Of a stretch of DNA of 40,902 nucleotides, positions 22,510-33,102 are shown in pieces. The notes beneath the pieces were generated by a model. That model did not search any database. It saw only the letters and a list, made by a program, of their open reading frames with translations, and was not told the DNA's origin. The DNA comes from an uncultured Verrucomicrobiota bacterium (GTDB lineage Bacteria; Auribacterota; JABMQX01; JAFGEW01), in NCBI GenBank assembly GCA_964550015.1, contig CAZJXV010000003.1, positions 1 through 40,902 on the forward strand, in the 5' to 3' direction. Every line of letters begins with the position of its first letter. The first letter of the stretch is position 1. The translations under genes were made by a program, and so were the position numbers.

Positions 22510-23205
22510 ATGGTGTCTCGTGGCGATACTGGTTCTCGCGGCGATCAGCCGAAGGCCAATCCAGGGCACAAAGCTGATGCGGACCCCGGCGGTCACGCGT
22601 CTGAAGCAGGGTCGGTCGTGCCGCTTGTTGAGGCTCCCGAGATTCGATATGACCTGCGGGTTCTCGAGTCGCTGCGTCGCATCATCCGCGCGCTTCACCT
22701 GCATTCTCGGAAGCTCGCGGCCGAGCACGACATCACAGCTCCCCAGCTCCTGTGTCTCATGACTGTGGCCCAGGAGGAGTTCCTCGGGGTCGCGTCAATC
22801 GCGCGGCGGGTGCATCTGAGTTCCAGTACGGTGATCGGCATTCTTGATCGGCTGGAGAGCAAGGGGATGGTATTGCGCGAAAGAGACAAGCAAGATCGCC
22901 GCCTTGTCAACGTGATGGCGACCGAACGCGGGCGCGAGCTCGTGGCGATGGCCCCATCGCCGCTCCAGGGTACGCTGGTTGAGGCGCTCAGACAGTTGCC
23001 CCAACTCGAGCAGTCAACGATTGCCCTCTCGTTGGAGCGCATTGTGGACTTGATGGAGGCGAAGGAGATTGCGCCGGCGCCGTTTCTTGATGCCGGCGTC
23101 GAGGCTAAGCCCTTGCCGGAAGAGAAGGCCCGCAGCCCTCAGCAGGGCGAAGTCATCGATCCCGCAACCGACGTTTCCACAGGGGGCGGCACGAACCGAC
23201 CTTGA
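22510..23205 (+). CDS. MarR-family transcriptional regulator with a roughly 45-aa N-terminal extension
   Basis: Winged-helix MarR core: ITAPQLLCLMTVAQEEFLGVASIARRVHLSSSTVIGILDRLESKGMVLRERDKQDRRLVNVMATERG. An AAGGA RBS is present. Confidence 0.85.
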   Translation: MVSRGDTGSRGDQPKANPGHKADADPGGHASEAGSVVPLVEAPEIRYDLRVLESLRRIIRALHLHSRKLAAEHDITAPQLLCLMTVAQEEFLGVASIARRVHLSSSTVIGILDRLESKGMVLRERDKQDRRLVNVMATERGRELVAMAPSPLQGTLVEALRQLPQLEQSTIALSLERIVDLMEAKEIAPAPFLDAGVEAKPLPEEKARSPQQGEVIDPATDVSTGGGTNRP

Positions 23206-23286
23206 GGCCGTCGCCCGCCGTTCCGAGGAAGCGCCAAGGTCTGACACCCACTAGGGAACTAACTCACTGAGAAGAAAGGTAGACGG

Positions 23287-24795
23287 ATGCCAATCATTGC
23301 TGAGAAACAGCGGCAAGGAGTCGTAGTAAAACCTCATTCCCGGCTTTCCGAGTCGGCTGTTGAGCTCATTGACGAGGTCTCGCGCGATCTGCTGCTGGAG
23401 CCGGGCCTGCTCTGCTGGAACGCCGAAGCCGCAAGGATCTTCGAGCGAAGCGGCGCAGCCGTGGAGGATGCCGGGGACTGCCTGCGCATCCGTATTCCGC
23501 CGGTCATCATTGACTGGGCGGTCGACGCAGCGCCGTCTGAAGTGGTTTTGGGGGCCCGGGATCCCGAGAACCGTCTGATCCTCGATGCCGATGAGCCACG
23601 AGTGCGCTTCGGCAGTGGCTCGGAGGCGAACATCTGGCTGGATGTGCGATTCGAGGACAGGACGCCCACGTTCGTGCGGCGCGAGGGTTCGATTGAGCGC
23701 CTGTGCGCAGCGGCGCACCTCGCAGAGAACCTCGAGCATCTCGACTTCTTCCTCCGCTGCGTCAACATCCGCGACAAGGAGATCAACAGAGAAAACAAGG
23801 ATGTCAACAAGTTCCTGGCCAGCCTGAATAACACGACGAAGCACGTTCAGGCCGGCCTGACCGACGTGGACGCGCTGGATCACGTCATTCGGATGAGCGA
23901 GATCATCGCCGGGGGTCCCGACGCGTTCCGCGCCAACCCGCCGATTTCCTTCATTACGTGTGTCATCAAGAGTCCGCTGCAGATGGTGGACGACACCGCC
24001 ACCACGCTCATTGAGATCTCGAAGCGCCGGGTGCCGGTCGTCATCTCGAGTTGCCCGATGGCGGGCACGACCGCGCCGTTCGACGAGTTCGGGCTGGTGG
24101 CCCAGATCAACGCCGAGGTGCTCGCCGGCGTTGCCCTGAACCAACTGGCCGCGCCGGGGGCGCCCGTGCTTTACGGCGCGGTCGCTTCGCGTAGCCGGCT
24201 CGATAATCTCAACGACATGTACGGTGCGCCGGAGTTCAACCACTACCTGCTCGATGCGGCGCAGATGGCGCGTCACTACGGTTTGCCGTGCTATTCGAGC
24301 GCGGGCGTCGGGGACACGAGCGTGCCGGGCATCCAGGCCACTGCGGAGAAGATGCTCACGCTGTGCGGCGTTCCGCTTGGCGGGCCTCAGTACGTGCACT
24401 ACGCGTTCGGCTTGCTCGAACGCACGAACGTGTTCTGCCCCGAGCAGGCCATTCTCGATGATGCGCACATCGGCATGATCAAGCGCGCCCTCAAGGAGCC
24501 TGACATCACGCGCCAGGACCACGACCGCGTGGTGAGCGTGGTGAGAGAAGTGATGGCGAGCGATCACAGAACGTTTATCTACCACCTGCCGCTCCCCACG
24601 AGGGAGCCCACCTATGTGTGCTATCCGCTTGAGGATGATGGCGGCGGCGCGCTGCGGGCCGCTCACGAGCAGTACAGGGCAATCATGGATCGGCCGCGCT
24701 GCTCGCTTCCCGAGGAGATGCTGCGGGAGATTACCGCCTCGATTCCAGGGATCCTGCCCGACGCGATTGGTTCCACAAGGCACGGAGGCCGATGA
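23287..24795 (+). CDS. Trimethylamine methyltransferase (MttB) family protein, non-pyrrolysine type
   Basis: Uninterrupted 502 aa. Family-typical block GAPVLYGAVASRSRLDNLNDMYGAPEFNHYLLDAAQMARHYGLPCYSSAGVGDT. Tyr312 (TAC) sits immediately before GAPE. Confidence 0.85.
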   Translation: MPIIAEKQRQGVVVKPHSRLSESAVELIDEVSRDLLLEPGLLCWNAEAARIFERSGAAVEDAGDCLRIRIPPVIIDWAVDAAPSEVVLGARDPENRLILDADEPRVRFGSGSEANIWLDVRFEDRTPTFVRREGSIERLCAAAHLAENLEHLDFFLRCVNIRDKEINRENKDVNKFLASLNNTTKHVQAGLTDVDALDHVIRMSEIIAGGPDAFRANPPISFITCVIKSPLQMVDDTATTLIEISKRRVPVVISSCPMAGTTAPFDEFGLVAQINAEVLAGVALNQLAAPGAPVLYGAVASRSRLDNLNDMYGAPEFNHYLLDAAQMARHYGLPCYSSAGVGDTSVPGIQATAEKMLTLCGVPLGGPQYVHYAFGLLERTNVFCPEQAILDDAHIGMIKRALKEPDITRQDHDRVVSVVREVMASDHRTFIYHLPLPTREPTYVCYPLEDDGGGALRAAHEQYRAIMDRPRCSLPEEMLREITASIPGILPDAIGSTRHGGR

Positions 24796-31587: not shown

Positions 31588-31692
31588 ACGTCGGCAGAGG
31601 GAGAAAAGCTAAACCTCTCGCTCGCACGTGCGGTTCGGTAGGGTGAACGGCAGAGCAATTCGGACTGTGCACGGCGCTCGTGGGAGGCTGAT

Positions 31693-33102
31693 ATGGCAGG
31701 CGCCCTTTTCCTGCCGAAAGCCAAGGCCACCATCGTTCAGGAGGCGACGCTGCACGTGCTCGAAAGGACCGGCGTGTACCTTGACCACGAGGAAGCCGAG
31801 GCGCTCTTCCTCGACAACGGGGCGACCAAGGACGAGTTCGGCCGGATCCTCTTGCCGCGTGCGATGGTCAATCAAGCGCTCGAGACGGTCTGTGACCGCG
31901 TGCAGTTCTACGATCGTGACGGCAACCGCTCGATCGTCGTGCGCAACGGCAAGACCTCCTTCGGCCCTGGCTCGGACGCCCTCTACAACATGGACGCTGA
32001 GACGGGCGAGCTGCGGCGCTCGGTGCTTGCCGACGTAGCGCGCAACGTCACCGTGGCCGATGCGCTGCCCGGCTTCGATTTCGTCATGTCCATGGCGTTG
32101 CCCGCCGACGTGCCACCGTACAAGACGTATGCCACAGTGTTCGCCGAGATGGCGCGCCACACAACCAAGCCGCTCGCGGTCACGGCCTCCTCGCTCGACG
32201 ACACAAAGCAGATTCACAAGGTCGCTTCGCTTGTCGCCGGCGGTGAGGATGCGCTCAGGAGTAAGCCCTTCTACATCGCGTCCCTCGAGCCGATCTCGCC
32301 GCTCAAGATGGATCGCTCGAGCACGGAGCGCCTGCTCTATTGCGCCGAGCACGGCATCCCGTTCGTCTACGCCTCGGGCGCCAACTGCGGCAGCGGCGCG
32401 CCCGTCACACCGGTGGGTGGGCTCGTGCAGGGTTCAGCGGAGTCGCTCTCCGGCCTCGTGCTCGCCATGCTCAAGAACGAGCAGGCGCGCTTCGTCTACG
32501 GCTCGAACACATCCGTGCTCGACATGACGACGAGCATCGTCTCGTAGGGCGCCCCGGAGTGGTTCAAGACCGTGGCCATGTACGCCGACATGGGCAAGTT
32601 CTTCGACCTGCCGAGCTGGGGCACGGCCGGGTGCAGCGATTCGTTCTCCATCGACGCGCAGGCGGCGCTCGAATCGTATGAGGGGATCCTCCTTGCGGCG
32701 CAGTCGGGCACCACGCTCGCGCACGACGTCGGTTACCTGGCCCACGGCGCATTGTACGACCCGCGTATGCTCGTGCTCACCGACGAGATGGTCAACCGGG
32801 CGCGGTTCCTCATGAAGGAAGCCGACCTCACGGAGAAATCGCTCGCCGTGGACGTCATTGACGAGGTTGCGCGCATGAACGACCTCTATCTCGCCCACCC
32901 GCACACGTCGGAAGTGTTCCGGACGTCGCTCTGGCTGCCGCCCGCATATATCAACCGGCGCAACATCGCCGATTTCTCGCTGGGCCACGACCTTGCTGGC
33001 ATGCTCAGCGAGCGCGTCCAGGGAATCCTTTCCACCCATACGCCAAAGCCGCTGCCCACGGACACCCTCGACGCTATCCACGCATACCTGAACTCGATCT
33101 GA
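31693..33102 (+). CDS. MttB-family methyltransferase with a single in-frame TAG at 32545-32547 (candidate pyrrolysine codon, or a nonsense pseudogene)
   Basis: Track ORFs 31693..32547 and 32572..33102 share one frame and no other stop lies between them. The read-through sequence ...LDMTTSIVS-TAG-GAPEWFKTVAMYADMGKFFDLPSWGTAGCSDSFSIDAQAALE is collinear with paralogue 1 (...LDNLNDMY-GAPEFNHYLLDAAQMARHYGLPCYSSAGVGDTSVPGIQATAE). A GGGAGG RBS precedes ATG 31693. Confidence 0.7.

Follow-up and report, generated by a model that had tools for sequence, protein, structure and literature searches.

A tRNA-Arg-associated island of an uncultured Verrucomicrobiota bacterium carries one lineage of a widespread MttB and betaine-type importer cassette

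What is the role of an operon that combines two MttB-family methyltransferases, an S-adenosylmethionine (SAM) methyltransferase, a betaine-type importer, and two asparagine synthetase homologs with no corrinoid protein beside them? The question is raised by eight genes at positions 22510-33102 of a 40,902-nucleotide stretch of DNA, here called the window (contig CAZJXV010000003.1 of assembly GCA_964550015.1), from an uncultured Verrucomicrobiota bacterium. The window corresponds to contig C3 (40.9 kb) of the host metagenome-assembled genome (MAG), G000, which comprises 4.44 Mb in 506 contigs and is 86% complete. From these genes, a sequence-only reading had proposed an undescribed, corrinoid-free route that imports, remodels, and amidates a betaine-like solute. 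We lean, if only slightly, toward another answer, in which the locus would be an acquired island between tRNA-Arg-derived repeats, and its genes one branch of a common, horizontally spread cassette for betaine-type uptake and corrinoid-dependent demethylation via a hub already resident in the genome.

The genes of the operon and the best promoter candidate upstream of it are as follows.

22385-22412, + strand: sigma-70-like promoter match upstream of the MarR gene (TTGACA-16-TATTCT, 10/12; consensus match only)
22510-23205, + strand: MarR-family regulator, first gene (PF01047, E 5e-15)
23287-24795, + strand: MttB1, non-pyrrolysine MttB superfamily, "MttB-b" subgroup (PF06253 MTTB, E 6e-58)
24792-26087, + strand: X431, 431 residues, class I SAM-methyltransferase fold (weak Methyltransf_25 match, clear SAM motif)
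26127-26882, + strand: OpuAA/ProV-type ABC ATPase (ABC_tran, proV subfamily; TIGR01186, 329.7 bits against a cutoff of 326.6)
26882-28495, + strand: fused ABC permease/OpuAC-type substrate-binding protein (BPD_transp_1, E 3e-21; OpuAC, E 8e-67)
28500-29996, + strand: AsnB-like adenylating enzyme, Cys-less (Asn_synthase and GATase_7)
30046-31587, + strand: canonical glutamine-hydrolyzing AsnB (Asn_synthase and GATase_7; NF006949, 553 bits against a cutoff of 499)
31693-33102, + strand: MttB2, non-pyrrolysine MttB superfamily, "MttB-c" subgroup, interrupted by a TAG codon (PF06253)

Profile searches matched the domain identities that had been read from the sequence (PF06253, Asn_synthase, GATase_7, OpuAC, and the SAM-methyltransferase fold), and the recomputed intergenic distances, in order 81, -4, 39, -1, 4, 49, and 105 nt, reproduced the gene order, the common strand, and the range of gaps (-4 to 105 nt) given earlier. 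No convincing terminator was found within the eight-gene unit by a terminator scan, which placed a hairpin with a 12-bp stem 3′ of the operon, at 33510-33540, as the likely transcript end. As far as pattern matches go, this layout fits transcription of the eight genes as one unit; promoter-like matches were no more numerous than in shuffled sequence. The ProV-type ATPase, the permease, and the OpuAC binding domain together make up a predicted OpuA/ProU-type importer, and a MarR gene also heads related cassettes.

The combination proved to be far from unique. A genome scan found X431 encoded in 312 species genomes, whose phyla include Planctomycetota, Lentisphaerota, Kiritimatiellota, Spirochaetota, Chloroflexota, Latescibacterota, Hydrogenedentota, and Fibrobacterota, among others. 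Habitats were taken from record titles, according to which many of the cassette-bearing MAGs come from soda-lake, hypersaline, Black Sea, and reactor samples. For neighborhood comparison, 80 X431-bearing loci were fetched (L numbers below denote fetched loci). In every one of them with enough flanking sequence, a gene of the MttB-b subgroup lies directly upstream of X431, often with a 4-nt overlap. A further MttB gene, MttB-a, which is absent from the window, is present in 57/61 loci, and an OpuA-type importer in 45/59. A chance fusion of genes inside an island is ruled out by this conservation of the neighborhood across loci, and the earlier view that the gene combination is not fortuitous holds, since some 312 species genomes show the MttB/X431 pair with an OpuA-type importer again. 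The literature searched yielded no account of such a cassette, in agreement with the sequence-only reading, although the coverage of that literature is incomplete and its silence is no proof of novelty.

Beside this core, the loci carry one of two accessory modules. Among the 31 loci whose flanks extend for 6.5 kb or more in both directions, 17 encode a ProA-type dehydrogenase together with a GCS2-like ligase and 13 encode one or more AsnB-superfamily proteins, while none has both and a single locus has neither, a mutual exclusion that is significant by Fisher's exact test (p = 7e-8). In line with the earlier reading, the tandem of AsnB-like and AsnB genes recurs beside the MttB/X431 pair in several lineages. 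On the X431 tree, the module states require at least eight changes, and strongly supported branches make four of these unavoidable, so one module has been exchanged for the other several times. In the sister version, the "aldehyde dehydrogenase" scores as a ProA equivalog (532 bits, cutoff of 289) and represents a second proA copy in 17/17 genomes tested. Loci of the ProA and GCS2 type often contain, between MttB-a and MttB-b, a gene for a DUF362 protein with two [4Fe-4S] motifs (L011/L101 7144-8448, L086 6092-7330, and others). This protein, which is absent from the window, could donate electrons for corrinoid reduction.

The apparent lack of a corrinoid partner stands for the operon's own contig, on whose 40.9 kb no B12-binding, pterin-binding, or RACo gene was detected, but not for the genome, in which three consecutive genes on contig C20 encode a corresponding set:

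contig C20: corrinoid protein, 234 residues (B12-binding_2 and B12-binding; best NCBIfam matches are MtgC types)
contig C20: methyl-tetrahydrofolate (methyl-THF):corrinoid methyltransferase, 327 residues (NF005719, 280 bits against a cutoff of 259)
contig C20: RACo/RamA activase, 612 residues

All four genomes of the same family keep a trio of this type, with a RamA ortholog that is 69-76% identical and with the trio syntenic in G003, whereas no MttB-family gene was found in any of the four at E <= 1e-10. The corrinoid hub is therefore resident and ancestral, and the MttB genes were acquired later; in G000, MttB1 and MttB2 are the sole PF06253 genes. Only one small corrinoid protein is encoded in G000, along with 21 paralogs of the URO-D family (PF01208) of about 350-410 residues on scattered contigs (e.g., C118:6363-7001, C41:10724-11467, and C66:2963-5227), so that methyltransferases unlinked to their corrinoid partner may be the normal layout here. 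The paralogs themselves suggest that many corrinoid-dependent methyltransferases share a single hub.

The scattering of corrinoid components is also common elsewhere: corrinoid and MtgA genes are adjacent to RamA in only 1 of 14 regions examined in other cassette genomes, while RamA homologs occur in 40/40 cassette genomes tested. Other loci link the cassette genes to corrinoid chemistry. A corrinoid protein 54-55% identical to that of C20 is encoded inside the cassette in L083 and L086, MttB-c homologs adjoin pterin-binding and corrinoid genes in the complete Hydrogenedentota genome L131, and another lies in L130, within a large MttB/corrinoid/MTHFR cluster. The same L130 cluster contains a stand-alone Met_synt_B12 gene (MetH activation domain; 12243-12917), which hints at SAM-dependent corrinoid reactivation in some of these systems. 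With a corrinoid set present elsewhere in the genome, B12-free chemistry need not be invoked.

We then examined the proteins of the operon. MttB1 (PF06253 score of 196.5 bits) has a valine at the position of pyrrolysine, where MttB-a of related loci has a threonine, and is 60-71% identical to the X431-adjacent MttB of the 80 loci. The start of X431 overlaps its stop codon (ATGA). X431 carries the class I SAM motif RIMDLGCGSADG, its SAM-binding motifs are invariant across the family alignment, and more than 1,600 homologs share about 60-67% identity. A structure model (pLDDT of 74.7) predicts a class I methyltransferase fold with a C-terminal helical domain; its Foldseek matches were generic class I small-molecule methyltransferases only, covering the N-terminal half, and a profile search of PDB sequences returned no credible match. 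In L129, the X431 ortholog (448-1736) is called as two overlapping open reading frames (ORFs) of 240 and 189 residues, owing to a frameshift or an assembly error.

The two AsnB homologs differ from each other. The AsnB-like protein begins with MPGIAG and lacks the glutaminase nucleophile Cys2, yet retains the SGGLDSS PP-loop and the SGEGGDE motif. In its synthetase site, DCVS replaces the TTIR of E. coli AsnB, so that Thr322, Thr323, and Arg325 are lost, and it fails the AsnB equivalog (319 bits against a cutoff of 499). Because these residues are lost, the enzyme probably adenylates a carboxylate other than aspartate. Orthologs that are 53-59% identical are found in many cassettes. The second protein starts with MCGITG, thus including Cys2, has the SGGLDSS loop, scores as an AsnB equivalog, and has copies 60-65% identical in other cassettes. 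Tandems of the two genes also occur in L033, L074, L077, and L080, and L012 has the pair the other way round. In L128 and L129, which are ENA metagenome sequences and the closest related DNA to the operon, the AsnB gene has no counterpart and the AsnB-like gene directly precedes the MttB-c gene; either an insertion in the window or a deletion in L128/L129 would account for this. The analogy once drawn with AsnO and the synthesis of N-acetylglutaminylglutamine amide did not survive: the two proteins score 291 and 131 bits against a TIGR03104 cutoff of 570, and neither a GNAT nor an ATP-grasp partner is encoded in the operon. The amidation also proposed at that time, with a betaine-like solute as its target, is possible.

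Both predicted MttB genes indeed match PF06253, but it had been overlooked that the second is split by an in-frame TAG at 32545-32547 (codon 285); read through this codon, MttB2 scores 202.7 bits. It is only about 30% identical to MttB-a. A TAG codon in frame within an MttB-family gene invites the interpretation that it encodes pyrrolysine and that MttB2 is a true trimethylamine methyltransferase. This interpretation is effectively refuted. In the alignment with MttB of Methanosarcina barkeri (7xcl), Pyl334 corresponds to Cys314 of MttB2, and homologs of MttB2 have Cys or Ser at this position, whereas the TAG aligns with a valine 29 residues before Pyl334, just ahead of a conserved G(A/S)PE motif. 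Codon 285 is a tyrosine in 114/114 full-length MttB2 homologs (up to 84% identical), and a single base change converts TAY to TAG. Neither a PylS match nor, by ARAGORN, a tRNA-Pyl was found in the genome, which is 86% complete. Since MttB2 is otherwise free of lesions and shares 84% identity with an intact homolog, the TAG must be very recent or an assembly error. From the alignments and the gene content of the genome, we conclude that it does not encode pyrrolysine and arose either by a recent nonsense mutation or by an error in the sequence.

The operon lies within an island and is bracketed by direct repeats with the following features.

21719-21951: left direct repeat DR-A, 233 nt, 91% identical to DR-B
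21753-21797, - strand: tRNA-Arg(ACG) 3′ fragment of 45 nt in DR-A (alignment to the intact L128 tRNA-Arg)
21801-21831, + strand: hairpin in DR-A with a 12-bp stem and a T-rich tail (terminator scan)
33245-33285: third repeat copy, short and partial (distal end)
33428-33660: right direct repeat DR-B, likely transcript end
33462-33506, - strand: tRNA-Arg 3′ fragment in DR-B (alignment to the intact L128 tRNA-Arg)
33510-33540: hairpin in DR-B (terminator scan)

The 11.7-kb block between the repeats is absent from the same-family genomes. The OEP gene to the left of the island has a 70% identical ortholog in G001, downstream of which there is nothing in common with the right flank of the window, no repeat, and no tRNA. 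ARAGORN did not call the tRNA-Arg fragments, whose recognition depended on alignment with the intact L128 gene. Sequences L128 and L129 are 76-81% identical to the window over 24349-29999 and 31693-33122, and in L128 the same tRNA-Arg fragment lies directly 3′ of an intact MttB2 ortholog, with phage-like genes, an integrase gene, and a complete tRNA-Arg beyond it. Neither an integrase nor an intact tRNA was found in the window, and an Rfam scan of 21000-34600 returned nothing meaningful. Together, the tRNA-bearing direct repeats and the integrase and intact tRNA-Arg of L128 place the operon in a tRNA-Arg-associated integrative island. Another copy of the distal 150 nt of the repeat, 75-77% identical, lies on contig C302 of G000 (3637-3795).

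Outside the island, the window encodes very large surface proteins with beta-helix, TSP3, and dockerin domains and a C25-like peptidase with a dockerin (7584-15214 and 37634-40897). ARAGORN also called an 87-nt tRNA-Ala(TGC) at 19869-19955, inside an AcrB-family gene (16918-20073); its length and location suggest that it is probably a false positive. A tRNA scan of G000 found 41 tRNA genes only, including one for tRNA-SeC, with those for Asn, His, and Ile missing, in line with an incomplete MAG.

How could these components work together? In the proposed pathway, the OpuA-type ABC system would take up a betaine-type quaternary ammonium compound, which an ATP-dependent AsnB-superfamily enzyme may first derivatize, a step for which the kinase MthK offers a precedent. 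MttB1, and MttB2 before its nonsense change, would act as substrate-specific methyltransferases passing a methyl group to the single small corrinoid protein of C20, from which the pterin-binding methyltransferase would hand it to tetrahydrofolate, while the RamA-type activase would repair oxidized corrinoid. X431 would serve as an obligate partner of the MttB-b enzyme, and the MarR protein would regulate the unit. The nature of the substrate was approached through MtgB, in which glycine betaine is bound by Y97, R312, H348, and F356, with R312 binding the carboxylate (PMC13080624). The histidine is conserved, F356 is kept in MttB-a only, and R312 is replaced by a tryptophan in MttB2 and by a tyrosine in MttB1 and MttB-a. 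As none of the three MttB types keeps this arginine, a substrate lacking a free carboxylate would fit. Assigning the substrate itself from the active-site residues of MtgB was not possible, as these residues differ.

Several points weigh against corrinoid-dependent demethylation of an imported betaine. The window MttB proteins do not keep the carboxylate ligand expected for glycine betaine, and biosynthesis, not catabolism, is where one would typically expect a SAM methyltransferase and an asparagine synthetase, or the second ProA of the sister version. That the island enzymes use the corrinoid protein of C20 is something we infer. RamA was also found in 30/61 relatives, most of which lack MttB, so that its presence is not specific to the cassette. 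Lastly, the copy in the window, with no MttB-a, a stop in MttB2, and the longest X431 branch, may be decaying.

The biosynthetic character of these enzymes would be explained if the cassette made or remodeled a methylated osmolyte. AsnB-type or ProA and GCS2-like enzymes would then supply an amino-acid-derived precursor, X431 would N-methylate it with SAM, the MttB proteins would either work backward, starting from methyl-corrinoid, or recycle methyl groups once the solute is not needed any more, and the importer would recapture leaked solute. The record titles, which assign the host MAGs largely to soda-lake, hypersaline, and other anoxic sediments, agree with such a role, as do the MscS channel and MarC/NAAT transporter genes recurring at the cassette edge, the second proA copy in all 17 genomes of the sister version, and the AsnB and SAM methyltransferase enzyme types. 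We nevertheless consider it unlikely. The methyl-transfer potential of quaternary amines exceeds that of methyl-THF, and the reverse reaction would thus run uphill. Moreover, the precursors supplied by the two modules would differ, yet the modules interchange while the core otherwise stays the same. None of the known osmolyte pathways fits, and every characterized MttB-superfamily enzyme demethylates its substrate (PMC13080624, PMC12155760, PMC8604678). Decay, for its part, could be the whole story in G000, leaving the island a remnant that is partly or wholly nonfunctional. The stop at an invariant Tyr codon of MttB2, the lack of an MttB-a found in 57/61 loci, the X431 end branch of 0.88 (median of 0.2), the absence of an integrase on the island, the fragmentary state of both tRNA copies, and the two overlapping ORFs of X431 in L129 all point this way. 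However, seven of the eight genes are intact, X431 of the window is the reference row at each of the invariant positions (more than 100) in the alignment of the family, and MttB2 combines its single lesion with 84% identity to an intact homolog. The architecture without MttB-a is, in addition, common to the L128/L129 lineage and may therefore be a stable variant. On balance, a dead or dying island seems rather improbable to us.

Far less credible is the original proposal of a corrinoid-free route, in which the MttB proteins, the SAM methyltransferase, and the AsnB enzymes would methylate or demethylate and amidate a betaine-like solute. Corrinoid, MtgA, and RamA genes are indeed absent from the 40.9-kb contig and from the 10 kb around most related cassettes, and the obligate neighbor of MttB-b, X431, is uncharacterized. 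Against this stand the full corrinoid set on C20, the RamA homologs in 40/40 cassette genomes, the corrinoid protein embedded in the cassettes of L083 and L086, the corrinoid and pterin-binding genes adjoining MttB-c homologs, and the habit of genomes in this family of keeping methyltransferase genes apart from a single corrinoid hub. The absence of a nearby corrinoid gene does not support the route, which we regard as very improbable. A bolder reading, offered tentatively and itself doubtful, would make MttB-b and X431 the two halves of a novel enzyme in which methyl transfer of the corrinoid type and of the SAM type is coupled on a single betaine derived from an amino acid. The AsnB-type or ProA and GCS2-like modules would make or activate its substrate, and the whole would constitute an undescribed pathway of methylated-osmolyte turnover spread horizontally among anaerobic sediment bacteria of many phyla.

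Identification of the substrate would assign functions to more than 1,000 unannotated proteins, and a new way of activating substrates for corrinoid-dependent demethylation might emerge as well. For annotation, the locus teaches that a corrinoid gene missing beside an MttB homolog is not evidence for corrinoid-free chemistry and that pyrrolysine should not be assumed wherever an MttB gene has a TAG in frame.

Comparison with known systems places the individual parts of the locus. As in tRNA-gene-associated integrative islands, repeats of a tRNA 3′ fragment bracket the block and a related element has an integrase beside an intact tRNA-Arg, but the window itself has neither. The canonical AsnB resembles E. 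coli AsnB (1ct9) in passing the equivalog cutoff and having Cys2. Its Cys-less neighbor shares with the Cys-less beta-lactam synthetase (1jgt) and CarA (1q15) the loss of Cys2 with retention of the PP-loop and SGEGGDE, yet is much closer to E. coli AsnB (E 3e-47) than to beta-lactam synthetase (E 4e-17). MttB2 belongs to the same superfamily as the pyrrolysine-containing MttB of M. barkeri, with which it aligns over residues 15-464 and shares the presence of an in-frame TAG, although this TAG is off the pyrrolysine codon and no pyrrolysine machinery was found.

The choline pathway of Eubacterium limosum also includes an MttB-family enzyme, MthB, whose true substrate is phosphocholine made by the kinase MthK (PMC12155760). 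The MthB-MthC-MthA-MthK system thus likewise co-encodes an MttB-family enzyme and an ATP-dependent one, which by analogy could provide a rationale for the AsnB-like and GCS2-like genes. Here, however, the ATP-dependent enzyme is of the AsnB superfamily or GCS2-like and not a kinase, its action on a quaternary amine is hypothetical, and the corrinoid and THF components lie outside the cluster. The MtgB-MtgC-MtgA-RamA system of Desulfitobacterium hafniense, with the E. limosum relatives MtpB, MtcB, and MtyB, similarly links a nonpyrrolysine MttB to a betaine-type transporter, and G000 too encodes an MtgC-like corrinoid protein, a pterin-binding methyl-THF methyltransferase, and RamA. Among solved structures, that of MtgB (9yce/2qne) matches MttB2 best, at low sequence identity (phmmer E 4e-38). 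Unlike in that system, the corrinoid genes are unlinked and on another contig, MttB-b is obligately paired with X431 and its SAM-methyltransferase fold, and AsnB-type or ProA and GCS2 modules are attached. To our knowledge, the MttB-superfamily systems described so far belong to a small number of firmicutes and methanogens. The MttB/corrinoid framework of the cassette is familiar; its obligate X431 partner and its swappable ligase modules appear to be new.

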